From assembly GCA_963806095.1 (NCBI GenBank), contig CAWDWV010000002.1, positions 1,453,949 to 1,517,948 on the forward strand: a stretch of DNA of 64,000 bases, given 5' to 3'. The notes under the pieces are model-generated. The model ran no database searches and was not told where the DNA came from. It saw only the letters and a program-made list of their open reading frames with translations. The translations under genes and the position numbers were made by a program. Source of the stretch: Thermoanaerobaculia bacterium. Its GTDB lineage: Bacteria > Acidobacteriota > Thermoanaerobaculia > Multivoradales > JAIOJS01. Every line of letters begins with the position of its first letter. Within the stretch, counting starts at the first letter, position 1. Of the stretch, positions 1-61,625 are shown in pieces.

Positions 1-30
1 CCTCTCCCGCGCGCTGGTCGAAGCCGCGTC

Positions 31-19124: not shown

Positions 19125-20469
19125 TCAGAGTACTTGGCCCAGCGCCCGCTCGCTGCGCCGGATCCCCTCGTCGACCTCCTCGCGGCAGACGACGAGGGCC
19201 GGCCGGAAGCGCACCGAGCGGTCGCCGCACGGCAGCGCCATCAGGTCGTTCTCGGTCATCGCCTTGAGGGTGGCGTTGCGCAGCTCGGTCGAAGGGAGGT
19301 CGAAGGCGGCGTAGAGGCCGAGGCCGCGGGCGTTGGTGACCTTGCCGGGGAAGACGCTCCTCGAGGCCGCGCAGGCCGGCGAGCAGGTGGCGGCCCATCA
19401 CGGCGGCGTTCTCGAGCAGGTCGTCCTCTTCGATGATCTCGACGAAGCGCTGGCAGCGCACCATGTCGACGAGGTTGCCGCCCCAGGTGGAGTTGATGCG
19501 GCTGCTGACCTTGAACACCGAGTCCACCTCGTCGACGCGCGCTGTCGAGGCGATGCCGCACTGCTGCGTCTTCTTGCCGAAGGCGAAGAGGTCGGGCTCG
19601 ACGCCGAAGTGCTCGAAGCACCACCAGCGGCCGGTGGTGGCGAAGCCGGTCTGCACCTCGTCGAAGACCAGCATCACCTCGTGCTCGTCGGCGATCTGCC
19701 GCAGGGCGCGCAGGAACTCGGGGCGGAAGTGGTTGTCGCCGCCCTCGGCCTGGATCGGTCTCGACGATGATCGCCGCCACGTCGGGCGCACGCTCGGCGA
19801 GCGCCCCGTGGATGGCGTCGATCGCCTGCCGCTCCTCCTCCTGGACCCGCCGCAGCACCTCTTCGGTGACCGGGAACGACAGCGCCGGGTTGTGGATGCG
19901 CGGCCAGTCGAACTTGGGGAAGTAGCTCGGTCTTCTTGGGGTCGGTGTTGGTGAGCGACATGGTGTAGCCGCTCCGGCCGTGGAAGGCCTGGCGGAAGTG
20001 GATGACCTGGTGGCCGATCTCCTCCTTGCGGCCGGCGGCGAAGTTCTTGCGCACCTTCCAGTCGAAGGCGGCCTTCAGGGCGTTCTCGATCGCCAGCGCG
20101 CCGCCGTCGACGAAGAACAGCCGCTTCTGGTAGCGCCGCCGGCACGGTGCGGGCGAAGGTGGCGACGAACTCGGCGAAATAAGGGGTGTAGAGGTCGGCG
20201 TTGGAGGGCTTGACCACGGCAGCCCGCAGCAGGCGCTCCCGCACCTCGGGGGTCAGCAGCTTGGGGTGGTTGTACCCCATCGGGTAGCTCGAGAAGTTGG
20301 TGAAGAAGTCCAGCAGCTCGCGCTCCCGCAGGCTGTCGTAGAGCCAGCTCCCGTGGCTGCGCTCGAGGTCGAGCACCACGCCGTAACCGTCCGCCAGCAT
20401 GTGCTGCTTGAGGGTGCCGTGCACCTCGGAAGGGGCGACGCGCAGAGAGGTCGCGGTGGCGATGCTCAT
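19125..20469 (-). CDS. lat: L-lysine 6-aminotransferase (lysine epsilon-aminotransferase); at least 3 frameshifts as assembled
   Basis: N-terminus 'MSIATATSLRVAPSEVHGTLKQHMLADGYGVVLDLERSHGSWLYD...FTNFSSYPMGYNHP'. Central text 'HFRQAFHGRSGYTMSLTN' and 'MLVFDEVQTGFATTGRWWCFEHFGVEPDLFAFGKK' (PLP Lys). My own translation of 19125-19340 gives the tail 'VTNARGLGLYAAFDLPS...RFRPALVV...GQVL*'. The pieces lie in different frames. AGGAGA precedes ATG 20469. Confidence 0.85.
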
Positions 20470-20678
20470 GACTGTCTCCTGGGGATCGGGAAGACTTTCG
20501 GACCTTGACAGTGAGGCGGGGCCGGCAGGGTGGGCCGGCGGCTGGACGTGATCGACACGGATCGTATCACCGGCCTGAATCTTTTTGAAATTGGCTGCGT
20601 AGTAGGGGTGTCGACAAGAGCGCGAACCTGCGCCGGTGCCGTCAGCGCACCGGACGCGTTGAACCGAGGTGGATTGTC

Positions 20679-21897
20679 ATGGCTAAGAAGTGGATGGTCG
20701 TCGGTGCCGCGATAGTGCTGGTGGGCGGTGCGGTGGTGGTGGCCAAGGCCACCAACAAGCAGAAGCCCAAGGAGCAGGAGTCCCCCTTCCGCCTCGGCAA
20801 GGCGCAGACCGAGGACCTGCAGGTGAGCGTGCGCGAGGTCGGCGTCGTCGACCCCGAGATCAAGGTCGACGTCAAGTCACCGGTCTCCGGGCCGCGTGCT
20901 CGAGCTCGACGTGCGCGAGGGCGACATCGTCGCCCGCGGCCAGGTGCTCGCCGCGGTCGAGCCCGACGTCAACCAGGCGCAGTCGCTCTCCGACGTCAAC
21001 GCCGCGGTGTCGCAGGCCGCAGCTGCAGGCTGCGCGACGCCGACCGCCTCCTCGCCAACCAGAAGGCGCTGTTCGACGCCGGCCTGATCGCCAACGAGCA
21101 CGCTGCGCGACGCGCAGATGACGCGCGACCTCGCCGCCGACGCGCTGACCAACGCCCGTGCCCGCTACAACATCGTCGAGCGGCACGGCATCCCGATCTC
21201 CGGCGGCCACAGCCAGAAGGCCAACGTCTCGACGCCGATGGCCGGCATCGTCATCGCCAAGGGGGTCGAGCTCGGCGAGACGCGTCACCTCCGGCGTCTC
21301 CTCGTTCAACGAGGGCACGGTGCTGTTCACCGTCGCCGACCTCAAGTCGCTGCTCATCAAGGTCAACCTCAACGAGGTCGACATCGCCAAGGTGCGCGTC
21401 GGCCAGCCGGTGCGCGTCACCCTCGACGCCTACCCGCAGAAGGTCTTCGACGGCAAGGTGCGCTTCGTCGCCCCGGCGGCCAAGATCGTCGACAAGATCA
21501 AGGTCTTCGAGATCGAGATCGCGCTCGACCAGCTCGACGACGCCTTCCGCACCGGCATGAGCGCCAACGTCGAGATCCTCGGCGAGAGCCGGCCGAAGGC
21601 GCTGTCGATCCCGCTCGAGGCCCTGCAGCGGCGCGACGGCAAGACGGTCGTCTATCGCCTGAAGCCCAACCTCGCCCGAGAAGCAGGTCGGCAAAGGCGC
21701 GCGAGGCCCTCGAGGGCCGCAGCAAGTTCGTCTGGCTGTCGGAGAACTGGAAGGACTACTTCGACGCCGTCCCCGTCGACGCCGGCATCGCCACGCTCGA
21801 GCGCGTCGAGGTGCGGGCCGGCCTGAAGGCCGGCGACCAGGTGGCGCTCGAGGACGTGACGCGCAAGAAGGTCGAGAAGGACGACGAGAATAATTAA
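20679..21897 (+). CDS. HlyD/MacA-family periplasmic adaptor of a tripartite ABC efflux system; at least 4 frameshifts
   Basis: N-terminal TM anchor 'MAKKWMVVGAAIVLVGGAVVVA'. Lipoyl-like text 'KSPVSG..VLELDVREGDIVARGQVLAAVEP'. Beta-barrel text 'VLFTVADLKSLLIKVNLNEVDIAKVRVGQPVRVTLDAYP...FDGKVRFVAPAA'. C-terminus 'VEVRAGLKAGDQVALED'. The segments are spread over all three + frames. GAGGTGG RBS. Confidence 0.8.
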
Positions 21898-21998
21898 CGG
21901 AGCAGCCTTCCAGACGGGGCGGCAAGGGCTCACTGGGGCTGCCGCCCGCCCGACCAAGAGAAGACTGGTTTTCATTCCACACCTCACCCCCCAACCCC

Positions 21999-22020
21999 CC
22001 TCTCCGCTCTAGCGGAGAGG
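21999..22020. repeat. Intergenic hairpin preceded by a C-rich tract (REP-like family, copy 1)
   Basis: CCTCTCCGCT-CT-AGCGGAGAGG forms a perfect 10-bp stem. It is preceded by 'acctcaccccccaacccccc'. A second hairpin, GGGCGGCA...TGCCGCCC, lies at about 21916-21948. Compare 62616-62641. Confidence 0.5.
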
Positions 22021-22043
22021 GCGGCCCGGAGGCGAACAGATCC

Positions 22044-22740
22044 ATGGCTACACCGATCATCACAACCCGCGGCCTCACCAAGGTCTACGGCGAGAACGGC
22101 AACGCGGTGCACGCCCTGCGCGGCATCGACCTCGACGTCGAGCGCGGCGAGTTCGTCGCCCTCGTCGGCCCGTCGGGCTCGGGCAAGAGCACGCTGATGG
22201 CCATCCTCGGCTGCCTCGACACGCCGACGGCCGGCACCTACGCGCTCGACGGCGAGCAGGTGCGAGGGCCTGTCGGGGGCCGAGCTCGCCGCCATCCGCA
22301 ACGAGAAGGTCGGGCTTCGTCTTCCAGCAGTACAACCTGCTGCCCAAGGCGACGCATCTCCCGCAACGTCGAGCTGCCGATGCTCTACGCCGGCGTCGGC
22401 CGCAAGGAGCGGCGCCAGCGCGCGCAGGAGCTGCTCGAGAAGGTGGGCTCGCCGACCGCGCCAACGCGCTGCCCGGCGCAGCTCTCCGGCGGCCAGCGCC
22501 AGCGCGTGGCGATCGCCCGCGCGCTCGCCAACCGGCCGGCGCTGCTGCTCGCCGACGAGCCCACCGGCGCTCTCGACTCGCACGACCGGCGGCGAGGTGC
22601 TGGCGCTCTTCCGCGAGCTCTACGCGCAGGGCAACACCGTCATCCTCGTCACCCACGACCCGGCGATCGCCGCGCTCGCCGAGCGCCGCGTCGAGCTGCA
22701 CGACGGGCTGGTGCACGTGCCCGAGGAGCTGGCGGCATGA
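22044..22740 (+). CDS. ABC transporter ATP-binding protein (MacB/LolD-type); frameshifted
   Basis: Walker A 'GPSGSGKST', Q-loop region, ABC signature 'LSGGQRQRVAIARAL', Walker B 'LLLADEPTGALDS', H-loop 'VILVTHD'. The N- and C-terminal parts are in different frames. The stop TGA at 22738-22740 overlaps the next ATG (ATGA). Confidence 0.85.
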
Positions 22741-24076
22741 GACTCTGGCCACGCAAAGGCCTCCGGCAGGGGAAAGACGAGCCGCGTAAGCCCAAGCGGG
22801 CCAAGCGGCCGAAGGTCGCGGGCTCCAAGGGCTCGTTCCGCGAGCGCCTCCACGAGTCCTGGATCGAGCTCAAGGAGACCCCCGGCCGCTCGTTCCTGCA
22901 GGCGCTGGGCGTCATGCTCGGCGTCGCCTCGGTGCTCGGCGGCTTCTCGATCGCCGACAGCCAGCGGCGCCAGACCGAGCAGATCTTCGCCCGCATCGGC
23001 GGCATCGACAAGCTCAACGTGCTGCCCACGGACATCGTCAACGACGGCACGCCGAGCGCGCTGCAGACCGCCAACCTCGGCCTGCGGCTCGACGACGCGA
23101 CCGCGGCGAGGCGTTGCCCACTGCCAAGGGCGTCAACGCCATCAGCGTGCTCAGAAACAGGCGCGGGCACGGGTGCGCTCGGAGTTCGCCGACGAGGAGC
23201 GCGACGTCTCCGGCATCGGCGCCGACTACATCGCCATGAACGGCTACGAGATCGAGCAGGGCCGCGCCTTCTCGGCCAACGACATGGAGACCGGCGCGCC
23301 GGTGGCCATCCTCGGCTCGAGGCGCCGCCGCCGACCTCTTTCCCACCGGCGACATCGTCGGCAAGCCGATCCGCATCGGCGACGTGCCGGTGACCGTCGA
23401 TCGGCGTCTTCCGCGAGAAGGTCTTCCGCTTCCGCGAGGGGCAGCAGAACATCTTCGCCTGGCGCAACCGCATCGTGGCGGTGCCGTCGCGGCTGATCGC
23501 CACCCGCATGCAGGGCGACGACTACCACCGCCTCGACCGCGTCACCTTCCGGGTGCCCGACCTCAAGGCGATGGTGGACTTCTCCAAGGAGCTGAGCTCG
23601 CTGGTCACCGTCAACCACCGCCTGCAGGACGACTTCCGTCTCGACGACGTCAAGCAAGCGCTGCGAGCGGCAGCTGCTCGCAGGGCGACGTCTACAACGT
23701 CATCTTCATGCTCTCCGGCGTGCTGGCGCTGATCGGCGGCGGCATGGTCAACGTCAACATCCAGCTCGCTTCGCTCAAGGAGCGGGTGCGCGAGGTGGGC
23801 GTCAAGATGGCGCTCGGCGCTTCGGGCCGCGAGATCTTCAAGTCGTTCATGACCGAGGCGCTGCTGCTCACCCTGCTGGGCGCCTTCTCGGGCTACGCCA
23901 TCGGCATCGCCTTCTCGTGGACGATCACCAAGTCGATCGGCATCCCGCTGTCGCTGGCGCCGAGGAGCTTCATCTGGGCCACCGCGATGGCGGTCGTCTT
24001 CGGCTTCCTGTTCGCGCTCTACCCGGCCGCCAAGGCCAGCCGGCAGTCGCCGATGGAGGCGCTGCGCTATGAGTAA
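22737..24076 (+). CDS. ABC transporter permease, MacB-like (MacB_PCD + FtsX); frameshifted
   Basis: 'RSFLQALGVMLGVASVLGGFSIA' (TM1), a periplasmic domain, then the FtsX module 'LALIGGGMVNVNIQLASLKERVREVGVKMALGASGREIFKSFMTEALLL...LYPAAKASRQSPMEALRYE'. The pieces lie in several frames. Confidence 0.8.
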
Positions 24077-25402
24077 GGCCATGAGCCTCTTCGAGCCCGC
24101 GGCGGTCGACGAGCTGCCGGCGAAGGTGGCGGCGACGAGGCGCCCGCGGCGCCGGCGCTCGCTCGGCGTGCAGCTCGCCCTGGTGTGGGAAGTGGTCACC
24201 GGCGGCTTGCGCGAGCTGTGGGCGCACAAGCTGCGCTCGCGCTCACCCTGACGCTGTTGATGCTCGGCGTCTTCGCGCTGGTGGTGATGATCTCGGTGCT
24301 CGACGGCGTCATGGACAAGGTCTCCACCGGCTTCGCCGGCATGAGCTGGGACGGCACGCTGGTGCTCACTCCCAAGGCGCCGAAGACCTCCGAAGAGCAG
24401 AAGCGCTTCGCCATGAGCACCGGCCTGCGTCTACGAGGACCTGGCGCGCATCGCGGCGCCGCACCCGAAGGTGCTCGGCTTCTCGCCGCGCGCCGTCAAG
24501 CGCGTCGCCGTGCGCACCACCGGCGGCACCGAGCGCATCTTCGTCAGCGGCGTGAGCTCCGAGTACTCGTTCCTGATGAACCGCCCGATCGGCCTCGGCC
24601 GCGGCATCACGCGACAACGACCAGCGGCGGCACTCGACGGTGGCGGTGGTGGGCGCCACGCTGGGCGCCAAGCTGTTCGGCGGCAGCGACCCGGTGGGGC
24701 GCGACATGGTGATCGAGGGCGTGCCGTACCGCATCGTCGGCGTGCTCGCCTCCGGCCAGATCTTCAACGAGGAGATGTGGCAGGACGCCAACGGCGTGCT
24801 GGTGCCGCTCGAGACCTACATGGACCGCCTCGACGCCGACCACGCGCTGACGCTGATCTCGGTCAAGCTGCGCAACACGCGCGACCTCGACGAGGTGCAG
24901 GCGGCGATGCTCGGCCGCGCCCGCCAGGCGCACCACGGCATCGAGGACGTCGAGGTGCGCAGGACCTCGACGCCGAGGCGGCGCGCGGCTACGAGGACTT
25001 CCTCAACCAGATGCACGGCTGGCAGCGTGGTGCTCTACAGCCTCGCCGGCACGGTGCTGCTGGTGGGCGGCGTCGGCGTGCTGTCGGTGATGCTGATCTC
25101 CTTCGCCGACCGCCGCTACGAGATCGGCCTGCGCAAGGCCATCGGCGCCGACGACCACCAGATCCTCGTGCAGTTCCTGCTCGAGGCGCTGGTGCTGGCG
25201 GCGCTCGGCGCCACGGTCGGCACGCTGGCCGGGCAGCGCGCTCTGCAAAGTGCTCTCGGACAAGTTCCCCTACGGGCCTGGTGGTCAACCCGTTCGGCCT
25301 GGCGCTGGCGTGGGGCATCGCGCTGCTGCTGGCCGTTCACCTTCGGGCTCTACCCCGCGATTCGCGCGGCGAAGCTGTCGCCCGATGGAAGCGATGCGGT
25401 AG
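24069..25402 (+). CDS. Second ABC transporter permease, MacB-like (FtsX); frameshifted
   Basis: 'ALTLTLLMLGVFALVVMISVLDG', '...MVIEGVPYRIVGVLASG', 'ADRRYEIGLRKAIGADDHQILVQFLLEALVLAALG', 'LYPAIRAAKLSP'. The expected end '...MEAMR*' (TAG 25400-25402) is reached only after a 1-nt shift in a CCC run. Confidence 0.8.
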
Positions 25403-25420
25403 CGAGCGATGTTTCCAGGG

Positions 25421-27106
25421 CTAGGGTTGCAGTTGCTGCGGCGCGATGCCCGCGTCGCGCGCAATCCGCACTCCCTCCCACGCGCCTATGGCACACGTCC
25501 TCCTCTGGCTCAATAGGAAGAAGAGGCCGTAGTGCCGAAGGGAGGCGGTCCGCTTACCGATCAGGTCCCGCCTCCAGTAGTCCATGCCCTCATTTGTCAT
25601 ATAGCAGAATTCCAAAGTATCGGTGAGGGTTTGATAGAGAAGACAGGTGACGAGGGAGAAGAGCCGGAAACGATCAAGGTCAACGTCAAAGCTGCCGCGC
25701 CCCAATTCGGCTGCGAGTTTGTCCATATCTGGCTCAGAGTCGAAATAACCGCCCGAGTCATTCGCTTTCGTCGAGAGGGAACGATAGAGGACCCCTGCTT
25801 GGTCGCCTAGGGTTTCGCCTGGATCAGTCACCACGGCCGCCTTGGGAATCTCTAGCGCCCCTTTAAAGGCGCCTGACCAAGCCGTGCGAAGTCTTCGGCG
25901 CCACCTCCGCAATTGCTCAGGCACGCGTTTGCCCAACCCTTTTGTCCGTCGTCGTTTCTGAGCAAGCGTCTGGGTGTTCTTCACGGGCGGCGTAGACAGT
26001 TGTACGTTGGCTCTGAGAGGCTGCCCATATCCATACGTCGACTGCGGCAAAAAGTTTGACGGGCCGACCACGAGATCGTAGGCGACGTCGCGCCCAAGAG
26101 TAATGGCTCGTGTCAACTCGAGACTAAGAGGTTCTCCATTTGCGAGAACCCCGACCAGATCGAGATGCGCAAGTTCCGATCTAATCGTCAGGCACGTTTC
26201 CTCAACGCGATCCTCGTTAATTGGCGGTAGGGGTCTTCCGCGGGTAAACCACGTGCCAAGCATGGCGAGGACGAAATCAGTAGCGCGACTCTGCATACGT
26301 ACCCGGAGATCTAGGTTATCGTCTACTGTTAGGATATCCTCGTCAAAGGTGTTCAAAAGCCTCTTGTGAGCCTCAGCTGTCGCTTCAGCGTCTAAGCCGC
26401 TGACGGACTCATGTTGCCGATCCTTAGACCAGAACCCGGTGTTGGAAGTGGGTGCCCCCTTTCCTTCGACCGAGCTCGGCAAACGAAAGCGGCGTGTGGT
26501 CTCACCCCTCGATAGCCACTCGCAATAGGCCTCACCATCCTTCGCAAGGATGCCCGTGATCGGCTCAAGCTCACCTCCCGGTGAGAATCTCTTGTCGCCG
26601 ATTCCAATCCAGTGGAGGGGGTAGCGATGCCTGCCGGCGGCGGCTTCCTCGTCCGCGAATGTCTGATACTCGGCTTGACTCAAGAGCCCCGTGTCAAGGT
26701 GTGCGCCGCTCGGGAGTCTGACCAGTCTACTTAGTCGATGCTGCAACGTTACCGCCACTGCCAGCTTGAATCGCTCAGGATCAATGGACCTCAAGCCGTC
26801 GCGTATCAGGTCGTCGAAGCGCTCTTTGGTCTTCGGGTCGACCGATTCCGCCTCCTCGATGCAATCCCAGGCCAGGGAAAGGGATTCTTGCGAAGGCTGC
26901 GTAAGAGCGATCTCCACGATCCGGGAGGCATCTCCGCCGGAAACGGACAGTCGAACTGTCTCGCGCCACCAAGAGTCGGTGATTGAAAACTTTGACAATG
27001 ACGTATTGCCAAGGGTGCGCAGTCGCCTCGAAGCAAGATATTCTTGTAGATTCAGATGAGAAAATTGGTAGAGGTGGTTCCCGACCTCTCCTATAAGGCC
27101 CGTCAC
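25421..27106 (-). CDS. C-terminal half of the NLR-like protein: NACHT winged-helix segment plus ~520-aa unassigned sensor region (ORF downstream of the in-frame TGA)
   Basis: Intact 561-codon ORF in DNA of about 50-58% G+C. It opens with 'LYQFSHLNLQEYLASRRL', the NACHT WH signature. It is in the same frame as ORF 27206..28786, and the 33 codons between them contain no stop. 'PITGILAKDGEAYCEWLSRGETTRRFRLPS' weakly resembles the FGE-sulfatase core. I see no repeat periodicity. Confidence 0.8.
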   Translation of the reverse strand: MTGLIGEVGNHLYQFSHLNLQEYLASRRLRTLGNTSLSKFSITDSWWRETVRLSVSGGDASRIVEIALTQPSQESLSLAWDCIEEAESVDPKTKERFDDLIRDGLRSIDPERFKLAVAVTLQHRLSRLVRLPSGAHLDTGLLSQAEYQTFADEEAAAGRHRYPLHWIGIGDKRFSPGGELEPITGILAKDGEAYCEWLSRGETTRRFRLPSSVEGKGAPTSNTGFWSKDRQHESVSGLDAEATAEAHKRLLNTFDEDILTVDDNLDLRVRMQSRATDFVLAMLGTWFTRGRPLPPINEDRVEETCLTIRSELAHLDLVGVLANGEPLSLELTRAITLGRDVAYDLVVGPSNFLPQSTYGYGQPLRANVQLSTPPVKNTQTLAQKRRRTKGLGKRVPEQLRRWRRRLRTAWSGAFKGALEIPKAAVVTDPGETLGDQAGVLYRSLSTKANDSGGYFDSEPDMDKLAAELGRGSFDVDLDRFRLFSLVTCLLYQTLTDTLEFCYMTNEGMDYWRRDLIGKRTASLRHYGLFFLLSQRRTCAIGAWEGVRIARDAGIAPQQLQP

Positions 27107-27205
27107 CTCCTCGAGGTATCTGCAATAGTTCTGTAATCGCTCCGCGGGGACCTCCTTCCCTACGAGCTCACGCTCGAGCCATTCTCTGGCTTGGCTTGGC
27201 GTAAA

Positions 27206-28786
27206 TCAGACATTCTGATCGAGCATTAGTTGAAAGGCGATACATTCAAGAGCGATCTGATGGTCGAGCCCGTCACAGGGGTCGGCGATTGCGATGCCTT
27301 TCGCCATTGGTCTATCGCGGAGAAGAACATCGCAAATTGCCTGGAAAAGAAGACCTCGCTTTTCAGGTAGGGCTCCACGCTCCATATGAACAATCGCCAT
27401 TAGCGTCAGCAACAACGGATTAGAGGCCATTTCTGAAAGTGGGATACTCGCGCCGATTCTGTCGGCAAGTGCGCGCGCCTCGAGTTGAGCGCGGTCGAAA
27501 ATCTCCGTCGGCTCGCCGGGAAGGGTCAGAAGGCGAGCTTGGGAATACCAGCGAATAAGGAAATCGGTCGCTTGCTCTAGATTGAATGGCTCTAGGGCGA
27601 GGTTGAGTCCAGCTCTCTCAAGTGTCGCCGCTCGGTAGCCTAAGGGCCGAGAGGTGAGAATGAAGGTGTTCCGAGGGTGAGCATTAATCTGACGATCGAC
27701 CCAGCGACTCACTTGGATGCGCTCCGCTTCGTCGGCTACTTCATCGAGGCCGTCCAGTAGGATTAGGCATCGCCCGGCCCGCAGCTTTCTCTCAAGCCAA
27801 TTTCTGGAGTGACGGAGAGCTGGTAGATCGGGAAGGAGGAGTTCGATAGCCAAGTCTGCTAAGCCGATGTCCGGTCGAGACAGTAGGGTTGACTTGGCCG
27901 TTCGAAAGGCCAGCAAGATTGGGACAAGATGCCTGGTCCTTGTTCCGTGCTCGCCGAGCGTCCCGCGAGCAAGGATGCTCGCCAGGTGTTCGAGGAGTGT
28001 TGTCTTCCCTGATCCCGGCGGGCCTAGAATTACAATGCGGCGATACGCTGGCGTAGAGCGACTCTCGGCGATAAACGTCCAGATCGACCGCGCGGCGCCT
28101 GATCGACGGCCTCCGACGACCATTGTTCGTGCTTGCTGAGGAATCTCGGAAACTAGGAGTAAGGGCACATAGAGCTTTTCAAGATCTGGCGCCGCGCGCA
28201 TGAAGACAGCCAACTCGCGGGGGCTGTATGTGCGGTAGCTCTCGGCGACAGCGCGGAGATAGGTTTGGCCGCGCGTCCAGAAACGGAAGCTGAACTCGCG
28301 TCGTGTGTGAGGAGCGAAGGGAGTCTTCTGAGGAAGCGAGTCGGAAGTGGTCTCCGAGAGTCTGCGTGCGCTGACTATCGCTGCGATGAGTTGGTGGAGT
28401 GGTTGCTCCTCGCTCGTGTCGCAGTTGAACTGGACCCAGGCGAGATTCGCGAGAAAGCGAGGCGGATTCGGACGGGTGGGTAAGGCGGTGCGCGGCAGGA
28501 GGACTGGAATAACGCGGAAGGCATCATCGGTAGTACGTCGGTCGAGTGCAGCCCACATCTCCTGCTGCTCCCACCGACCGAAGCCATGGGGCCCGACCAA
28601 CACAGCGCAAGTGTGGCTGGCCTCGAGTGCCGATAGTAGGGCCTCCTGCCAAGGCGTTCCTGGCCTAATATCCCAAAGGTCGAGAAAGGGATTTATTCCA
28701 GCCCGCCGGAGTTGACGTGCTAGCGCCTCGACGTGAGTGCGATCCTGTCGGTTGTAACTGAGAAAGACGTCGTAGATGTGCCCCAT
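27206..28786 (-). CDS. TIR domain + NACHT/STAND P-loop NTPase (N-terminal half of an NLR-like protein, ends at an in-frame TGA)
   Basis: 'YDVFLSYNRQDRTHVEAL...' is a TIR beta-A motif, and 'GRWEQQEMW' sits at the expected catalytic-Glu position. Walker A is 'VILGPPGSGKTTLLEHL'. Walker B is 'CLILLDGLDEVADE'. 'NTFILTSRP' also fits. Confidence 0.85.
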   Translation of the reverse strand: MGHIYDVFLSYNRQDRTHVEALARQLRRAGINPFLDLWDIRPGTPWQEALLSALEASHTCAVLVGPHGFGRWEQQEMWAALDRRTTDDAFRVIPVLLPRTALPTRPNPPRFLANLAWVQFNCDTSEEQPLHQLIAAIVSARRLSETTSDSLPQKTPFAPHTRREFSFRFWTRGQTYLRAVAESYRTYSPRELAVFMRAAPDLEKLYVPLLLVSEIPQQARTMVVGGRRSGAARSIWTFIAESRSTPAYRRIVILGPPGSGKTTLLEHLASILARGTLGEHGTRTRHLVPILLAFRTAKSTLLSRPDIGLADLAIELLLPDLPALRHSRNWLERKLRAGRCLILLDGLDEVADEAERIQVSRWVDRQINAHPRNTFILTSRPLGYRAATLERAGLNLALEPFNLEQATDFLIRWYSQARLLTLPGEPTEIFDRAQLEARALADRIGASIPLSEMASNPLLLTLMAIVHMERGALPEKRGLLFQAICDVLLRDRPMAKGIAIADPCDGLDHQIALECIAFQLMLDQNV

Positions 28787-28910
28787 GAGGTTCGCGGCTA
28801 CTCAGGCGTGAACACCATTGAGGCGGCCAGGAGCGCGACCTCGGGAGATGTGAGACGAGAGCATCAGAAGAACGAAGCGGAGCAACCTTGGCACGGGACC
28901 GGAACTGACC

Positions 28911-30062
28911 TCAGTCCGCGTGCGAGCGCCGCAGCGGCATCTTCTCCGCCACGTCGCCCACCGGCGCCACCTGAATCCGATCTCGCCCGGTCTCCTTGGC
29001 GATGTACATCGCCATGTCGGCATGGCGCAGCAGCGAGCTCTTCGCCTCGGCGTGCGGCACGTCCGATGGGATGTGCCGCTGCAGGGTCGCTACGCCCACC
29101 GAGCAGGTGATGCCGCGGAGGTGCAGCGCCTCGGGGTGGATCTCGCCGGGGACCTCGCAGAAGGTGTGCTGGCCGATGCGTAGGCGGATGCGCTCCGCCA
29201 ACCCGACTGCCTCGTCCAGGGCGACGTCCGGCACTGCGAGCACGAACTCGTCGCCGCCGTAGCGGGCGATCAGCGCCTCCGGCAGTGCGACGGCTTCGAC
29301 GATCTCCTGGCCGACCTCGCGCAGGACCTGGCTGCCCGCGAGGTGGCCGTGGGTGTCGTTGACGCGTTTGAAGAAGTCGAGGTCCATGAACAGCACCGCC
29401 AGGTCGCTGCAGCGCTCGCGGCAGTCGGCGATGGCGCGCGACAGGCCCTGGTGCAGGTAGCGGTCGTTGTAGAGGCCGGTGAGGTTGTCGCGCTTGGCGA
29501 TCTCCTGGGCGTAGCGGGCGTCGAGCACGTTCTGGATCGAAACCGAGATGTAGCTGGCGAAGATCTCCAAGAGGTCGAGGTCGCGCGGGCTGTAGTCGGC
29601 CGCCCCCTGGCGGTTGATCAGCTCGAGCACGCCGCAGACCTCTTTCTCGATGCGGATGGGGATCGCCACCAGCGACTCGGTGCGGTAGTCGATGGCCTCG
29701 TCGACGCCGGGGTAGAAGCGCGGGTCGCTGGAGACGTCTGCCGAGAAGTAGGACTTGCCGGTCGAGTAGACGTGGCCGGCGATGCCGTTGGCGGCGGGAA
29801 CGGCGCGGCCGAGCAGGTCGCCGGAGCTCGAGCCGAACGCGGCGATGAAGAAGAGGTCGTTGTGCCGCCGCTCGGGCAGCTTGTCGATGGGATTGTCGAG
29901 CAGGATCGAGCCGGCCGCCGAGGGGACGAAGGCGTTGGCCTTGCGCAGGATCTCGATGAGGTTCTCCGCCAGGCTCATCTGCGGCGGCAGGTTGGGGGTC
30001 GCGCGCCGGCGGAGGAGGAAGCGCTCGAGCTCTTGTGGGTCCAGGCAGTGGACGTCGACCAT
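28911..30062 (-). CDS. GAF domain-containing diguanylate cyclase (GGDEF)
   Basis: 383-aa product starting at ATG 30062. GAF-like text 'AGSILLDN...GIAGHVYSTGKSYFSADVSSDPRF...SLVAIPIRIEKEVCGVLELINR'. GGDEF domain text 'RDNLTGLYNDRYL', 'FMDLDFFKRVNDTHGH', 'ARYGGDEFVLAV'. Confidence 0.9.
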   Translation of the reverse strand: MVDVHCLDPQELERFLLRRRATPNLPPQMSLAENLIEILRKANAFVPSAAGSILLDNPIDKLPERRHNDLFFIAAFGSSSGDLLGRAVPAANGIAGHVYSTGKSYFSADVSSDPRFYPGVDEAIDYRTESLVAIPIRIEKEVCGVLELINRQGAADYSPRDLDLLEIFASYISVSIQNVLDARYAQEIAKRDNLTGLYNDRYLHQGLSRAIADCRERCSDLAVLFMDLDFFKRVNDTHGHLAGSQVLREVGQEIVEAVALPEALIARYGGDEFVLAVPDVALDEAVGLAERIRLRIGQHTFCEVPGEIHPEALHLRGITCSVGVATLQRHIPSDVPHAEAKSSLLRHADMAMYIAKETGRDRIQVAPVGDVAEKMPLRRSHAD

Positions 30063-30145
30063 GCGTGAGGAACCGCAGCTAAACCGTGGCGTCGCAAGGC
30101 AAACGATAACAGAACGGGGGTGCGAAGCCGCGGGACGGGTCCGGG

Positions 30146-31960
30146 CTACCGCAATCGGCGGGCCAGGCGGCGCGAACGCTCGAGCAGCTCGCGCTGGAGC
30201 GAGTCGGTCGAGGCGAGGCGCGGCGCGTAGCGCAGGTAGTGCAGGTCGTCGACGAGGCGCACCAGCTCGCCGGCGAGCGCCGGCCCGAGACCGCGCTTGG
30301 CGAGCAGGCCGGCCCAGTGCGTCGGCGGCGCCTCCACCGGCAGGTCGTAGCGGGCGCCGAGGAAGCTGCGCCAGGCCTCTTCGGCCGCCCCCGCCGCCTG
30401 CCGCGGATGGGGCTCGCCGAGGGCGGCGGTGACCTCGGCCACCAGCTGGCGCCGGGCGGCGCGGTCGCGGCCGAACAGACGGGCGAGCAGGAGGCCGAGG
30501 CCGGCGAGCGCGAGGGCGCCGCCGGCGCCGCCCACCGCCCAACCGAGCGGACCACCCCAGCTCGCTGACCGCGCCGCGGCGGCCGGCGCCGGCGCCCCGG
30601 TCGGTCGTGCCGCCGCGGGCGGTGCCGGCGCCGCCGGCGTCGCCGCCAGCTTTTCGGCGGCCGTGCTCACCGTCCCGTAGGCGCCCTTGGCCGGGTCGAA
30701 GGTGACCCACGACAGCGCCGGCAGGCTCCACGCGCCGGCGCGCTCGGGGACCAGCGTCCAGCTCCAGCTGCGCGTCGACTCGAGGCGCGTGCCCTCGACC
30801 TTCTGCCGGCTCGACTCCTGCGGCGGCGAGATCTGCAGCCCCGGCAGCGGCGCCAGCTTGGGGTCGGGCAGGCCGCTGAGGTTGCCGTTGCCGCTGATCT
30901 CGGCGGTGAGGATGGCCGCCTCGCCCGCGGCCACCTTCGGCGGGTCGAGGCGGACGCGAGCCTGTAGCGGCCCGACCGCGCCGCCGAAGCCCGCGGGTGG
31001 CGGCGGCAGCGCCTGCACCGCCAGCTGCACGGGGTTGCTCTGGCGCCGCACGGCGCGGCGCAGCGGCTCCTCGCCGAAGCCGAAGCCCACCGGGCGGAAG
31101 TAGATGATCCGCAGGTCCGCCTCGGCGGCGTCGACCTCGTGCGCGCCGGGTTCGTAGGCGAACAGCGCGCGCTGCAGGATGGCCTGCCGCCACCAGAGCT
31201 TGCCGTCGAGCTCCACCATCTCGGCGCGGCCGTTCTCGGGGAGCTGCACCTCCTGCGACCAGAAGCCCTGGAACGCCGGCACGCGCCGCGGGAAGATGGT
31301 CTCGATCACGACGCGCCCCTCGCCGGGGGCACGACGTTCGGCGAGCAGGTAGAGGGTGTAGAGCAGCTGCTGGCCCGCCCACGGCCGCGCCGGCGAGACG
31401 TCGGCGCGCAGCAGGATCTGCGGCGGGCCGGTCGCCGCCGATGGGCGCCGGCGCGAGAAGATGTCGCGGAGCGGGCCGAAGGCGTCGAAGGGTGTGCCTG
31501 GGTGTCCCGGCCCGGCGCCGCGGCCGTTCTCGTCCACTCCCGGTGCCCCTGCGGCTCCCACCTCCTCGACCCAGGCTTCCTGGTCGGGCAGCGCCAGCTC
31601 GTCGTCGCCGCTCACCAGCCTGAGGGCATAGACGCGCGCCTTGCCGGGGCGCTGCGGCGACAAGTACCAGGTGAGGCCGTAGCTCTGCGACAGCTTGCCG
31701 TTGACCCAGCTCATGTTCTCCTGTCGCGACGGGCCGCCCACCACCTGGAAGTTCTCCAGCTCGAAGCGCGGCGGTGCGAAGCGGAAGGAGCCGAGGCCGG
31801 CGCGCGAGACCTCGAAGGTGAGCTGCGCGGTGTCGCCCACGGTGAGACGCTGCGGCGTGAGTGTCACCCGCACCGAGCCGGCGGCGACTGCGGCGCGCGG
31901 CAGCAGCGCGACGAGCAGCGCACAGACGAGGAGAGTGCCGGACCGGTTTCCGTCCCTCAC
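30146..31960 (-). CDS. batD: BatD-like oxygen-tolerance protein
   Basis: The GTG start overlaps the batC TAG. A signal peptide 'TLLVCALLVALLPRAAVAAG' is followed by a long beta-rich ectodomain ('VTLTPQRLTVGDTAQLTFEV', 'AILTAEISGNGNL'), a TM 'GGALALAGLGLLLARLF' and the helical tail 'LVDDLHYLRYAP'. The ORF is intact. Confidence 0.75.
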   Translation of the reverse strand: MRDGNRSGTLLVCALLVALLPRAAVAAGSVRVTLTPQRLTVGDTAQLTFEVSRAGLGSFRFAPPRFELENFQVVGGPSRQENMSWVNGKLSQSYGLTWYLSPQRPGKARVYALRLVSGDDELALPDQEAWVEEVGAAGAPGVDENGRGAGPGHPGTPFDAFGPLRDIFSRRRPSAATGPPQILLRADVSPARPWAGQQLLYTLYLLAERRAPGEGRVVIETIFPRRVPAFQGFWSQEVQLPENGRAEMVELDGKLWWRQAILQRALFAYEPGAHEVDAAEADLRIIYFRPVGFGFGEEPLRRAVRRQSNPVQLAVQALPPPPAGFGGAVGPLQARVRLDPPKVAAGEAAILTAEISGNGNLSGLPDPKLAPLPGLQISPPQESSRQKVEGTRLESTRSWSWTLVPERAGAWSLPALSWVTFDPAKGAYGTVSTAAEKLAATPAAPAPPAAARPTGAPAPAAAARSASWGGPLGWAVGGAGGALALAGLGLLLARLFGRDRAARRQLVAEVTAALGEPHPRQAAGAAEEAWRSFLGARYDLPVEAPPTHWAGLLAKRGLGPALAGELVRLVDDLHYLRYAPRLASTDSLQRELLERSRRLARRLR

Positions 31961-32736
31961 TACCAGTCCTTCTCCGTCACCGTCTGCGCCCGCCGGCGGC
32001 GCTGCTCGGCGGCTTGCGCGCGGCGCTGCTCGCGCTCGAGGTTCTCCACCGCCTCGAGGAGGAAGGCGGCCTGCTCGGCGCTCATGTCGCGCTGCGGGTT
32101 GAAGTTGGGCAGCCGCTGCGAGCGCTGTCCTTGGCTCGGCTGCTGAGCGCCCGGCTGCGGCTGCTGCGGTCGAGGTTGCTGTTGCTCGCCCTGCTCGCCC
32201 TCTCCCGGCTTGGGCTGGCGATCGCGGCGCCCGCTCTCTCCCTGGTTGCCGCCGCCGCCCTGCGGCTCCTGTTGCTGAGGTGGCGGCTGCTTGTCGAGCT
32301 CGCGCAACGCCAGCTCGAGGTTGTGCTTCGTCGGCCGATGGTCGGGCCGCAGCCGCAGCGCGGCGCGGTAGCTCTCGGCCGCGGCGGTGGCATCGCCGGC
32401 GGCGAGGTAGGCGTTGCCGAGGTTGTAGAGCGCGTCCGGTTGCAGCGAGCGCGCGGCAGGGTCCTTCGCCGCTGCCGCCGCCGCGCGCGCGAGCGGCTGC
32501 AGGGCCGCGCCCGGCGTGCCGGCGCCCAGCTTTCCGGTGCCGGCGTTGAACAGCGCGCGCGGCGTCTCTCCCTCGATCTCGAGCGCCTGCTCGAGGTGGC
32601 GGTCGGCGGCGGCGTAGTCGCGGCGCTGCCACTCCTCGATCGCCCGCGCCGTGCGCTCGCGCGGGTTGTGCAGCCACTGCGCCGGCAGCGACAGCGCACC
32701 GGCCGCGGCGAGCACCAGCAGCGGCGCGCCCCTCAC
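31960..32736 (-). CDS. batC: BatC-like TPR protein with Gln/Pro/Gly-rich tail
   Basis: A GTGA overlap links it to the batB stop. Signal anchor 'APLLVLAAAGALSLPA'. TPR-like text 'ALYNLGNAYLAAGDATAAAESYRAALRLRPD'. Low-complexity text 'QPPPQQQEPQGGGGNQGESG...QQQPRPQQPQPGAQQP'. Confidence 0.7.
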   Translation of the reverse strand: MRGAPLLVLAAAGALSLPAQWLHNPRERTARAIEEWQRRDYAAADRHLEQALEIEGETPRALFNAGTGKLGAGTPGAALQPLARAAAAAAKDPAARSLQPDALYNLGNAYLAAGDATAAAESYRAALRLRPDHRPTKHNLELALRELDKQPPPQQQEPQGGGGNQGESGRRDRQPKPGEGEQGEQQQPRPQQPQPGAQQPSQGQRSQRLPNFNPQRDMSAEQAAFLLEAVENLEREQRRAQAAEQRRRRAQTVTEKDW

Positions 32737-33758
32737 GCGGCCGCCTCCTGGCGCCGGAACGGCGACGTGGCGAGCGCCAGCAGCAGCGCCCCGACCGCGA
32801 CGCCGAGGAACCACTGGAAGCGCTCCTGCTGCTGGCGCAACGAGCTCGGTGCCCAGCGAGCGGGTGGCGAGGCGCGACACCGCATCGACGATGGGCGTCG
32901 CCGCGGCGACGGTCCTGCCGCGCTCGACGTAGACGCCGCCGGTCGTCTCGGCGACGCGGCGCAGCAGCGTCGGCTGCAGCCGGCTCAGCACCGGCTTGCC
33001 GTCCTCGTCGAGCTTGTAGCCGTCGCCGCCGCCGCGCGCAGCGGCAGCAGCGCGCCCTCGCGCGGTGCCGACGCCGATCGTGTGCACGATGACGCCCGAC
33101 TCCTTGATCAGCTTGCACCGCCGCGTCCCAGTCCTCGCCGTGGTCCTCGCCGTCGCTGAGCAGCACCACGACCCGCTGCGTCCCCGGCTCGGTGCGGGAA
33201 GAGCAGCAGCGCGCGGCCGAGCCCGTGCGAGAGGCGGCGTCCCGGGCGTCGGCAGCGAGGCCGGCGTCGAGCGAGTCGAGCATGAGGTCGACGACGGCGC
33301 GGTCGAGTGTCAGCGGCGCCAGCACCTCACCGTCTCCTTCGGTCTGCACCAGGCCGAGCCGATGCCCGGCAAGGCCGGCGACGAGGTCGCGCGCCAGCAG
33401 CTTCGCCGCCGTCGAGCGGTTGGGGTACACGTCGGGCGCCGTCATCGACAGCGAGGTGTCGACCACCAGCACGACGTCGACGCCGCGGCGCTCGACGCGC
33501 TCGGCGTGGGTGCCCCAGCGCGGCCGCGCCAGCGCCAGCGCGGTGGCGGCGACGGCGACGGCGAGCGAGTACTACGAGCAGCACGAGGCGCAGCGGCCGG
33601 TAGCCGGGGAGGAGCTTGTCCCACAGCCCCTTGCTCGCCCACGCACCGACGGCGCGCAGCCGCCGGCGCCACACCCACGCCGCGGCGGCGGCGGCGAGCG
33701 GCGCCAGCAGGGCGAGCCAGGCGAGCCGCGGGTCGGCGAGGGAGATCGCGTCGCTCAT
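32733..33758 (-). CDS. batB: BatB-like von Willebrand factor A (VWA) membrane protein; frameshifted
   Basis: An ATGA overlap links it to the batA stop. '[30 protein letters not shown]', the MIDAS motif 'VVDTSLSM', '[13 protein letters not shown]', 'HTIGVGT', and the C-terminal TM '[18 protein letters not shown]' (my translation). The pieces lie in three frames. Confidence 0.75.
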
Positions 33759-34753
33759 GGCTCGGCGGTGACTCCGGCGCCCGCCGCGAGCAGCGGCAGC
33801 AGCAGCAGCGCCAGCGCGCTCCAGGCGAGAGGCTGGAAGGCCTCCTCGTGGCGCACCATCTTGCGCACCTGCAGCGGCGTGCGCTCGAGGCGGTCGATGG
33901 CGGCGAAGATGTCGCGCAGCGCGGCCGGGTCCGAGGCGCGGAAGAAGCGGCCGCCGGTGCGCTGCGCGATGCGCTGCAGCAGGTCGACGTCGACGCGCAC
34001 GTTCCACGACACGCGGCGGACCTCGACCTCGCCGGTGTTGGGGTCGCGCACCGGCACGGGGATGATCACCGGGCCGTTCGCGGTGCCCACCGCCACGGTG
34101 TAGACCTTGATGCCGAGGCCGGCGCAGATGGCGGCGGCGGAGTCGGGGTCGATCTGCCCGGCGTTGTTGTCGCCGTCGGTGACCAGCACCACGAGGCGCG
34201 ACTTGGCCGGGCTGTCCTTGAGCCGCGCGGCGGCGTTGGCGAGCGCCAGGCCGATGGCGGTGCCGTCGGGGAGCGAGTGCAGCTGCAAGCCGTCGATGAG
34301 CGACTGCAGCATCTCGCGGTCGGTGGTGGGCGGCGACTTGGTGAGCGCGGCGCCGGCGAAGGCGACGAGGCCGATGCGGTCGCCCGGCCGGCCGCCGACG
34401 AAGTCGACGAGCACCTTCTTCGCCACCTCGAGCCGGTTCTTGGGCGCGAAGTCCTCGGCACCCATGCTGCCCGAGATGTCGAGCACGAGCTGGATGTCGA
34501 CGCCCTCGGTGCTGGTCTCCTCCCAGGCATAGCCGAGCTGCGGCCGCGCCAGGGCGACGACGAGCAATGCCAGCGCGGCGAGGCGGCAGTAGAAGGGGAG
34601 GTGGAGCCGCCAGGCGCCGCCGGCGACCGCCGGCAGGCGGCTGAAGGTGAGCGCGCCGGGCGCGCCGCTGCGGTGGTGGCGCCAGGCGAGCAGGGGCAGC
34701 AGGAGGAGGAGCAGCAGCCAGAGCGGATCGGCGAGACTCGGCACCGCTCTCAT
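33755..34753 (-). CDS. batA: BatA-like VWA membrane protein
   Basis: Intact 332-aa product. It has an N-terminal TM, the MIDAS motif 'LVLDISGSM', 'AFAGAALT', '[13 protein letters not shown]', 'IKVYTVAVG' and a C-terminal TM '[15 protein letters not shown]'. Confidence 0.85.
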
Positions 34754-34763
34754 GCCGCTTGCC

Positions 34764-35760
34764 TCACGCGGCGGCGCCGGCGTCGGCCGGCACCGGCTCC
34801 GGGACGAGCTCGCGTCCGACGTCCTCGCCGACCTGGCGGGCAGCGGCGAGCCGCTCGGCGGCCTCTTCGCGGCTCGCCGGGCGGCGCGCGAACTTGACCT
34901 CGTCGCAGCGGCGCAGCAGGTCGAGCAGCTGGCGGCGGGTCGTCGCCTCGAGCCGCCCGCGGCGCAGCTCGCGGTCGATCTCGGTGGTGGTGCGCTCGGC
35001 GGCGGGGAAGCCGAGCAGCGCCGCGAGCAGCTGGCGCAGCGCCAGCGAGATGCCGGTGTGGACTTGCTCGACCGAGGGCTCGCGCGGTGAGCGCCGCGAG
35101 GTCGCGCAAGAAGCGGGCGAGCGGCGGCAGCGGCGGCGCGGCCGGCGCTTCCGCGGCGATGCCGCGGCGGCGCCACAGCAGCAGTCCCGCGGCTGCCAGG
35201 CAGGCGAGCGCCAGCCCGCCGGCGGTCCACCAGAAGGCGTCGCCGAGCGGGCAGCGGTTGCGGCGGTGTCGGCGGCTGCGGCGTCGGCTGCCCTTCCGCC
35301 GGCAGCACCGAGCGCACCGTGAGCACCAGCGGCGGCGTGGTGAGCCGCAGCGGCTGGGGCGGCGACGGGTCCTCCTGCCGCAGGGGCGAGACGACGACGG
35401 GGATCGGCGGCAGCGTCACCTTGCCGGGCTTGAAGGCGGTGACCAGGAGCTCGAGCCGGTAGCGCGTCGGCGCGCCGGGCAGCGCCTGCGGCCGCTGGAC
35501 CGCCAGCACCTCGGCGCCGCCCCACTGCCGCAGCCGCGGGTCGATGGCGGGCGGAGCCCAGCGCTCGCCGGGCGGCAGCGTCACCTCGACCTCGACGCGC
35601 ACGCGGTCGCCGACGGTGATCTCGGCGGGCGAGAGTCGCGCCCGCACCGACGCGCCGGCCACCGCCGGATGCGCCGCCGCCGGCTGCGCCACCGGCGCGG
35701 CTGCCGCGCTCGCCGGCCCCAGGGCGACGACGAGCAGCAACGCCGAGACCGGCCGCGGAA

Positions 35761-35764
<4 letters not shown>
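34764..35764 (-). CDS. Membrane protein of Bat operons (BatD-like N-domain + DUF4381-like C-domain); frameshifted
   Basis: The GTG start at 35764 overlaps the DUF58 stop. Signal peptide '[20 protein letters not shown]'. '[26 protein letters not shown]'. After a shift comes '[36 protein letters not shown]...[14 protein letters not shown]'. Confidence 0.55.
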
Positions 35765-36690
<926 letters not shown>

Positions 36691-36708
36691 GAGATCGCGC
36701 CCGCTCGG

Positions 36709-37709
<1,001 letters not shown>

Positions 37710-60343: not shown

Positions 60344-61614
60344 ATGCCGCTTTCGGTGTACTCGGAGATCGGCCGCCTGCGCCGCGTGCTGCTTGCACCG
60401 CCCCGGGCGCGAGATCGACTGGATGGTGCCCGCGATGATGGAGCACCTCCTCTTCGACGACATCCTCGACGGCGAGGAGGCGCGCGGCGAGCACGACACC
60501 TTCCGCACCCTTCTCGAGCGGCTCGGCGTCGAGACCCTCGACGCGACGCAGCTGCTCGCCGACGTCCTCGGCCACGACGACGCGTCCCGCCGCGAGCTGC
60601 TCGACGAGCTCGCCGCGCCCCACCACCGCATCTCGGAGCGGGCCTTGGGTCGGCTGCGCGAGCTGCCGCCGGCCGAGCTCGCGGCCGCCCTCGTCGGCGG
60701 CCTGCGAGGAGACGAACCGCCCCGCCGCGGCGCCGGCCTCTTCGACATGCTGCCGGTGCCCAACTACTTCTTCCAGCGCGATCCGCAGATCGTCGTCGGC
60801 AACCGCGTCGTGGTGTCGTCGATGGCGACCGAGGCGCGCGAGCGCGAGCCGGTGCTGGCGGCGAGCATCTTCCGCCACCACCCGGCGCTGCAGGGTTACG
60901 AGGACCTCTTCGCCGTCCACTCGCCGCCGCACGAGGCGCCGGACTACGGGCCCATCTACCCGTACCCGAGCCTCGAAGGAGGCGACGTGCTGGTGGTGTC
61001 GCCCGAGCTGCTGCTCGTCGGCATCAGCGAGCGCACCAATCGCCGCGGCCTCGAGGCGCTGGCCGACTACCTGCGCCGCGAGGACACGCCGTTCCGCCAC
61101 CTCATCGCCGTCGAGCTGCCGCCGCGCCGCGCCTTCATGCACCTCGACACCGTGTTCACGCTCGTCGACCACCACCTCTGCATCGGCTATGCGCCGGTCG
61201 TCGAACCCGACGGCCCCGAGTCGGCGCGCGTCTACCGCGTCGACCTCGGCAGCGGCGAGCTGACGTTCACGCTGCAGCCGTCGCTGCTCGGCGCGCTGGC
61301 TGCCCTCGGCGTGGAGCTCGAGATGGTGCCCTGCGGCGGGCGACGACTTCCTCGAGCAGCAGCGCGAGCAGTGGACCGACGGCGCCAACGCCTTCGCGGT
61401 GGCGCCGGGCGTCATCTTCCTCTACCACAAGAACCGCCACACGACGGACGGCCTGGCGGCGCGCGGCTGGCGGGTGCTCACCGAGGAGGAGGCGCTGCAG
61501 GCGCCCGACCTCGGCAGTGGCCACACCGTCATCACCTTCTCCGGCCGCGAGCTCTCACGCGCCCGCGGCGGCCCGCGCTGCATGACCATGCCCCTCGAAC
61601 GCGACAGCCCGTAG
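60344..61614 (+). CDS. arcA: Arginine deiminase; two frameshifts
   Basis: 'VYSEIGRLRRVLL' (frame of ORF 60182..). 'LLFDDILDGEEARGEHDTF', 'NYFFQRDPQIVVGN', 'LEGGDVLV', 'FMHLDTVFT' (frame 60393..). 'REQWTDGANAFAVAPGVIFLY' and the catalytic 'GGPRCMTMPLERD' (frame 61399..61614). Confidence 0.85.
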
Positions 61615-61625
61615 GAGACCCGCAC

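Follow-up and report, generated by a model that had tools for sequence, protein, structure and literature searches.

In the genome of a Thermoanaerobaculia bacterium (assembly GCA_963806095.1), a 64,000-nucleotide stretch of contig CAWDWV010000002.1 (positions 1,453,949 to 1,517,948, hereafter the window) carries on its minus strand an NLR-like gene cut by one in-frame TGA, raising the question of whether this stop is a mutation, an error of the assembly or a working part of the gene. We favor, with a probability of about 0.6, a recent nonsense mutation in a single horizontally acquired gene combining a TIR domain, a NACHT module and a sensor region, the result being likely a null or crippled allele.

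One frame interrupted by one codon

Translation of the minus strand from 28786 to 25421 gives 1122 codons, among which the only stops are the TGA at codon 527 and the terminal TAG at codon 1122. The two open reading frames (ORFs) listed for this region, 27206..28786 (526 amino acids, ATG start) and 25421..27106 (561 amino acids, GTG start), lie in one common frame, and the 33 codons separating them translate as FTPSQAREWLERELVGKEVPAERLQNYCRYLEE. This translation confirms what the original prediction had claimed, namely that a lone in-frame TGA falls within the NACHT module and leaves both halves intact, that the two ORFs share a frame and that the gap is free of stops. Over the same 3366 nt, the remaining five frames hold 37 to 42 stops each, and shuffled copies of the stretch hold a mean of 38.5 in-frame stops (minimum 21). 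When computed with the composition of the gene (57.6% G+C), the probability of finding 594 stop-free codons 3' of the TGA is ~1e-9. The open frame with its single TGA is real and beyond chance. Its improbability had been put forward for 561 codons at about 54% G+C; the argument stands, the open run being in fact the 594 codons that follow the TGA, and the value of ~54% holding for the local 600-nt window around the TGA only.

A search with the fused frame recovered 2084 homologues, most of them NACHT proteins of cyanobacteria, in which FGE-sulfatase and GUN4 domains are frequent and an N-terminal TIR or SEFIR domain occurs in some cases. The best homologue, P0001, is a TIR-NACHT-FGE protein of 1127 amino acids that shares 36% identity across 99% of the query (45% with the N-terminal half and 30% with the C-terminal half). 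Its alignment with the query is collinear from the first residue up to the C-terminal AWEG[IV]RI motif conserved in the family, and the downstream half is thus intact to its end. The column at the stop was compared in the best 120 of the 2084 homologues, all of which span query residues 497-557 in one high-scoring segment pair; none starts or ends within ~50 residues of the TGA column. In a 51-sequence alignment, the N-terminal half ends opposite P0001 residue 519 and the C-terminal half starts opposite residue 521, without any indel, the TGA standing in for exactly one codon, that of Arg520 (CGC). Among the 120 homologues, the residue opposite the TGA is E in 83, Q in 8, D in 6, T in 6, S in 5, A in 4, R in 3 and K in 2, with others in the remainder, and W or C in none. 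The closest homologue places an arginine at the stop, in a hydrophilic column. The suggested ancestral change of TGG to TGA does not agree with a family column made of E, Q, D, T, S, A and R but never W; given the Arg of the closest relative and the hydrophilic character of the column, CGA (Arg) to TGA would be the simplest one-step path.

The position of the stop in the fold was read from the AlphaFold model of P0001, not of the window protein (mean pLDDT, the predicted local distance difference test, of 76, and >90 through most of the NACHT part). The best PDB neighbors of this model are NOD2, NLRP3 and NLRC4 (E ~1e-11 to 1e-9), and it is through this model that the window protein is predicted to have an NLR-like fold. 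Residue 520 belongs to a short strand (520-522) that comes after helix 499-515 of the winged-helix domain (WHD); on the 3' side of the stop position follow the recognition helix (544-554), the beta-hairpin wing (558-568) and His570. As modeled, the break falls in the middle of the WHD and not at a domain boundary. Its earlier placement just ahead of the NACHT winged-helix motif was correct, and the stop can now be set more sharply inside the WHD, past its first helix. The winged-helix motif FSHLNLQEYLA, with His576, is encoded 49 codons past the TGA and, as the gene is written, is not on the polypeptide that bears the nucleotide-binding domain (NBD). In alignment A1, conservation is 90% or higher at P0001 residues F568, H570, Q574, E575, Y576 and L577.

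At the sequence level, the N-terminal part has the marks of a TIR NADase effector, with a domain scoring above threshold and a glutamate in a WxxxE-type motif. A catalytic role for this residue, Glu76, would follow that of known TIR NADases. The presumed sensor part is less clear-cut, since the FGE-sulfatase match is partial (profile positions 40-139 of 255) and is the only, weak, Pfam match in the C-terminal half; the same family is annotated on many homologues of the NLR-like protein. No PDB chain was matched by the sequence of the NACHT module, and a PADLOC scan of both halves gave no NLR-type system model, only TIR-related and generic P-loop matches. The C-terminal ~330 residues (25421-26400; P0001 residues 800-1127) form a long helical region with no Pfam match and a pLDDT of 40-60, closed by an AWEG[IV]RI[VA]R motif that is well conserved across NACHT-FGE homologues.

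We therefore propose the following history, each step of which is to be read as provisional. The ancestor would be one horizontally acquired NLR-related gene whose product had a TIR effector at the N terminus, a NACHT NTPase module in the middle and an FGE-like and helical sensor region at the C terminus; one recent base substitution would then have created the TGA at codon 527, within the WHD of the NACHT module. Translation would end at this codon and release a 526-residue fragment made of TIR, NBD, HD and one WHD helix, in which the sensor is missing altogether, as is most of the WHD with its ADP-contacting His576. The 594 downstream codons would not be translated as a separate protein and would still be open only for want of time for further damage; the intact downstream frame would therefore speak for recency, not for function. 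The allele would most probably be null, or crippled and segregating in the population, and the fragment itself may be inert or deregulated. Newly acquired genes of the abortive-infection type are commonly lost or inactivated. That the TGA is a true mutation rather than a read-level error, that it is recent and that its product is non-functional all seem to us probable rather than established. For annotation, this locus should accordingly be entered as one disrupted TIR-NACHT NLR-like gene and not as two genes.

Mutation or assembly error

The most serious rival to a nonsense mutation is a sequencing or assembly artefact, in which the gene of the organism would be intact and the TGA a wrong consensus base, such as a systematic base-call error that the k-mers of the Logan assembly described below would share. 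The case for it comes from the rest of the window, where a codon-usage Viterbi tracker divided the coding sequence into 65 short segments and switched frame on the same strand ~54 times without meeting a stop codon. These switches are clustered (1-2950, 19135-25228, 33114-37680 and 60406-62529, or roughly 0-3, 19-25.2, 33-37.7 and 61-62 kb), and ~45 kb of the window, including a 5-kb gene, is free of them. Three related loci from Illumina metagenome-assembled genomes (MAGs), treated with the same tracker, are clean and made of gene-sized single-frame segments. Of the switches, 46 of the 54 are of the +1 type (one extra base), a strong bias that looks technical rather than mutational, and the clusters look like either patchy insertion-type consensus error or an unusual, patchy gene decay.

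Homology confirmed the slips in three places. Aligned with the aminotransferase of the related locus L002 (Acidobacteria CTSoil_010), the window gene breaks up into five segments that alternate in frame, the indels between them being +1, -2, +1 and +1, one of which is an extra A within the conserved EPIQG motif; MoxR occupies at least two frames; and the last ~170 nt of the FtsX tail next to the NLR-like gene require four 1-nt deletions to restore the frame. Three of these deletions raise the Pfam FtsX score from 40.8 bits (profile 25-72) to 62.9 bits (profile 25-120 of 120), and the fourth provides the canonical ...LSPMEAMR end, closed by the TAG at 25400-25402. The conserved genes that bear slips encode a TonB-dependent-receptor-like outer-membrane protein, a class-III aminotransferase, an ABC ATPase with MacB/FtsX permeases, and MoxR.

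Against an artefact, the error signature of the window consists of indels, whereas the TGA is a substitution, and the NLR island has no frame slip over 3.5 kb. Furthermore, the residues flanking the TGA align perfectly in frame with the homologues, and the TGA is reproduced in a second, non-identical assembly whose contigs need recurrent k-mers. There, the exact 526- and 561-amino-acid products, 99 nt apart, are encoded on a 3847-bp Logan contig from run ERR12035939, which also encodes the 36-amino-acid cut product of the GGDEF end. The 75-amino-acid product of the window's FtsX-tail frame, in the frame and position of the fourth gene of the Logan contig, is not on record; the Logan gene in the FtsX tail also ends at TAG 25400-25402. 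Because the FtsX tails differ, the Logan contig and the window are not mutual copies, but the TGA is common to both. Nine reconstructed 75-amino-acid candidates for an unbroken FtsX tail on the Logan contig had no exact match in a collection that also lacked the 36-amino-acid positive control, so that their absence carries no information; exact look-ups of the window's 460-amino-acid aminotransferase ORF and 309-amino-acid DUF58 ORF returned nothing on record, and a full-text literature search found no paper naming run ERR12035939. The Logan contig corresponds to about 25175-29021 of the window and ends ~230 nt beyond each edge of the low-G+C island, which would fit strain-level presence or absence of the island or variation of its flanks.

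Several points count against our preference for a mutation. The contig is not of finished quality, or has undergone much gene decay, as the conserved genes beside the island are broken by slips, and because these conserved neighbors carry several frame slips the TGA may itself be a wrong base. The Logan contig may share reads with the window; it excludes a random slip of the consensus while leaving room for a systematic base-call error. Finally, the ancestral codon is not visible because the searched databases hold no relative above 45% identity; likewise, metagenome contigs scanned for the 40-nt stop context, with NNN at the stop, gave 0 matches. Nevertheless, because the island is slip-free and the TGA belongs to a different class from the indels, we rank a true nonsense mutation above an artefact, to which we leave an appreciable but clearly minor chance. 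Given its many +1 slips, any broken-gene call on this contig needs read-level support.

Restart, recoding and read-through of the stop

Among the four causes listed by the original prediction, a nonsense mutation is thus favored and a base-call error possible, while read-through and a functional split are disfavored. In a functional split, a TIR-NBD-HD half would reassemble into a working protein with a WHD-sensor half whose translation starts at GTG 27106 or further downstream. Both halves are indeed open, and the Logan gene caller annotated two genes, choosing GTG 27106 as the start of the second. However, the break lies within the winged-helix fold rather than between domains, and a start at this GTG, the first in-frame ATG, GTG or TTG past the TGA, would cost 33 conserved residues and open the product (at about P0001 residue 554) within the WHD recognition helix. 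A GGAGG directly abuts the GTG with zero spacer, so that a properly spaced ribosome-binding site is absent, and neither of the next in-frame candidates (codons 597 and 624) is preceded by a Shine-Dalgarno-like sequence. With this missing spacer and a start in the recognition helix, GTG 27106 is not credible as an initiation site. The original prediction had named homologues that end at this position and have a separately initiated downstream gene as the sign of a two-gene system; none of the 120 is split or ends nearby. We consider a functional split very improbable. An overlapping out-of-frame restart was also considered and rejected.

Recoding of the TGA, as selenocysteine or as a sense codon of an alternative genetic code, is suggested by the in-frame TGA itself and by nothing further. 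TGA closes 17 of the 22 long, cleanly tracked genes of the window, at positions matching those of relatives; one of them is the neighboring GGDEF gene, whose terminus aligns with that of its counterpart in a related MAG. None of the 120 homologues has a Cys opposite the TGA. The 96 nt that include the TGA and the sequence after it form no more stable a fold than shuffled copies do (z = -1.4), and they contain no hairpin resembling a selenocysteine insertion sequence (SECIS). TGA being the usual stop here, with neither Cys nor SECIS, both forms of recoding are effectively refuted. An Rfam scan of the window at gathering scores returned nothing.

A leaky stop could instead act as a throttle, near-cognate read-through of the UGA yielding a trickle of full-length receptor while the truncated fragment remains the main product. 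UGA is the leakiest bacterial stop, and the 594 codons downstream are perfectly intact, both of which such a throttle would accommodate. In addition, hyperactive alleles of bacterial NACHT proteins are toxic (bioRxiv 10.1101/2022.07.19.500537), so low dosage could be tolerated or favored. However, since none of the 120 homologues has a stop here, such a device is not conserved, and no stimulatory structure was found 3' of the TGA. As for the termination context, the following base is U, and UGA-U is a comparatively efficient terminator in E. coli. The intact downstream frame, moreover, is predicted equally by any recent mutation. While basal read-through of the UGA occurs at some low level, there is no sign of selection for it, and we regard a leaky throttle as improbable. 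Somewhat less probable still is that the UGA is maintained, either because it caps the TIR-NLR at the read-through level or because it gives a TIR-NBD fragment, without the autoinhibitory winged-helix His, with a role of its own. If the stop were maintained and leaky, stop-codon leakiness would be part of bacterial NLR regulation, and the dosage of an abortive-infection receptor would be controlled in an unusual way, of which the present data give no sign.

The island, its neighborhood and related systems

A recent nonsense mutation thus remains our preferred explanation, and the setting of the gene (Table 1) provides the grounds for its horizontal origin. The gene has a G+C content of 57.6%, against 72% for the contig, and the tracker, which was trained on the window, did not recognize 25229-28911 as host-like and labeled it non-coding. 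In the related MAG SMAG_U4476 (L001), which is 84% identical over window positions 28904-31940, homology ends 7 nt past the GGDEF stop codon and is followed by a pseudouridine synthase gene and ~2.4 kb of 55-65% G+C. In L002, only 186 nt separate the GGDEF gene from the next gene, the aminotransferase, whose window counterpart is at 19139-20450; positions 20470-28975 of the window are therefore extra relative to L002. The NLR-like gene is absent from the syntenic site in both. The gene content of this locus therefore varies, and the NLR-like gene was acquired recently, by horizontal transfer. A cyanobacterial-type NACHT-FGE receptor gene has thus been transferred into a high-G+C Acidobacteriota genome, where such a gene can occupy a variable locus as a single-gene island.

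Table 1. Coordinates of the NLR-like gene, its motifs and the adjoining features (window positions; residues of the fused frame).
Feature	Position	Residues	Strand	Remarks
NLR-like whole frame	25421..28786		-	TIR - NACHT (NBD-HD-WHD) - FGE-like - helical C-terminal region; 1121 sense positions and terminal TAG; one interruption
TIR domain	28385..28768	7-134	-	Pfam TIR_2, 90.2 bits (cut-off 28)
TIR WxxxE-type motif RWEQQEM	28556-28576	71-77	-	putative catalytic Glu76, assigned by motif inspection
NACHT nucleotide-binding domain	27539..28042	249-416	-	Pfam NACHT, 64.8 bits (cut-off 26.7)
Walker A GPPGSGKTT	27998-28024	255-263	-	
Walker B/NACHT signature LILLDGLDEV	27737-27766	341-350	-	contains D[GAS]hDE as DGLDE
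ILTSRP motif	27644-27661	376-381	-	
Premature stop, codon 527	27206..27208		-	TGA, context GTC TGA TTT, from the translated frame
GTG opening the 561-amino-acid ORF	27104..27106		-	first in-frame ATG/GTG/TTG, 33 codons past the TGA
Winged-helix motif YQFSHLNLQEYLAS	27029..27070	573-586	-	conserved NACHT histidine His576, downstream of the TGA
FGE-sulfatase/C-type-lectin-like segment, presumed sensor part	26411..26695	698-792	-	PF03781, 22.4 bits, under the 23.3 cut-off
Low-G+C single-gene island	25403..28910		.	~3.5 kb, 55-60% G+C vs 68-80% in the flanks; foreign codon usage
GAF-GGDEF diguanylate cyclase, upstream co-directional host gene	28911..30063		-	intact, ends in TGA
MacB/FtsX-type permease tail, convergent host gene	24640..25402		+	end restored at TAG 25400-25402

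The variable locus extends over window positions 20470-28975, to be compared with 11048-11229 of L002 and 3984-7956 of L001, and in the window it consists of an ABC/FtsX operon and the NLR island together with two unknown small genes. No direct or inverted repeats of the kind left by a transposon or integrase-type insertion were found on the flanks of the island, and no mobility genes were seen. Where the FtsX and NLR-like genes converge, a 17-nt inverted repeat has one arm on either side of their 3' ends (25313-25329 and 25435-25451; 88% complementarity, 105 nt between the arms); both arms lie within coding sequence, and the repeat may be due to chance or be a shared terminator-like element. 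On the other side of the GGDEF gene, the minus strand of 30146-37680 carries a Bat/MoxR-type operon (MoxR AAA_3, DUF58, VWA proteins and BatD) syntenic with that of L002, in which DUF58 and BatD are intact and MoxR is frame-broken. It is followed at 37881-42941, on the same strand, by a 1686-amino-acid ORF in one clean frame, whose only match is to Sortilin-Vps10/BNR-type repeats and which probably encodes a large, glycoside-hydrolase-like repeat protein, either secreted or exposed at the surface.

Among known systems, the gene is best compared with the bNACHT antiphage proteins, which likewise combine an N-terminal effector, a NACHT module (NBD-HD-WHD) and a variable C-terminal region. The features that define NACHT proteins are the D[GAS]hDE motif and the WHD histidine (Kibby et al., bioRxiv 10.1101/2022.07.19.500537), and mutation of this histidine hyperactivates the bacterial proteins (bioRxiv 10.1101/2022.07.19.500537). 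Here, the Walker A GxxxxGKT, the D[GAS]hDE (as DGLDE) and the WHD histidine are all in frame, and the modeled fold of the closest homologue matches NOD2, NLRP3 and NLRC4. Unlike the bNACHT proteins, the window copy is interrupted by a stop within the WHD, is hit by no NLR-type model of PADLOC, reaches only 36% identity with its best relative in the databases, and lies on a MAG-like contig of Acidobacteriota.

A second comparison is with the NACHT/nSTAND-FGE proteins of cyanobacteria and other multicellular bacteria. NACHT proteins with FGE/C-type-lectin domains are putative antigen sensors, some of them diversified by diversity-generating retroelements (DGRs) (Dore et al., PNAS 2024, PMC10907252). 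Most of the 2084 homologues have this combination of NACHT and FGE-sulfatase, whereas the FGE match of the window protein is sub-threshold, lies in the middle of the protein and is followed by ~330 helical residues. The gene also differs from DGR targets: there is no template/variable repeat pair in 24900-29400 (no repeat >38 nt at 71% identity, reverse transcriptase not having been specifically searched for), the neighbors are GGDEF and FtsX genes, and the TGA is outside any variable region. Two-gene, or split, STAND systems differ as well, since 0 of the 120 homologues end or start near the column and the sole nearby start codon has no spacer to its GGAGG. In contrast, pseudogenised defence genes with a nonsense mutation offer a close parallel, that of a lone premature stop in a recently acquired, potentially costly gene whose frame is otherwise intact, and no feature of the window gene sets it apart from them. 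Taken together, these comparisons describe a gene that is a divergent new member of the NACHT family and an interruption that is of a known and ordinary kind.

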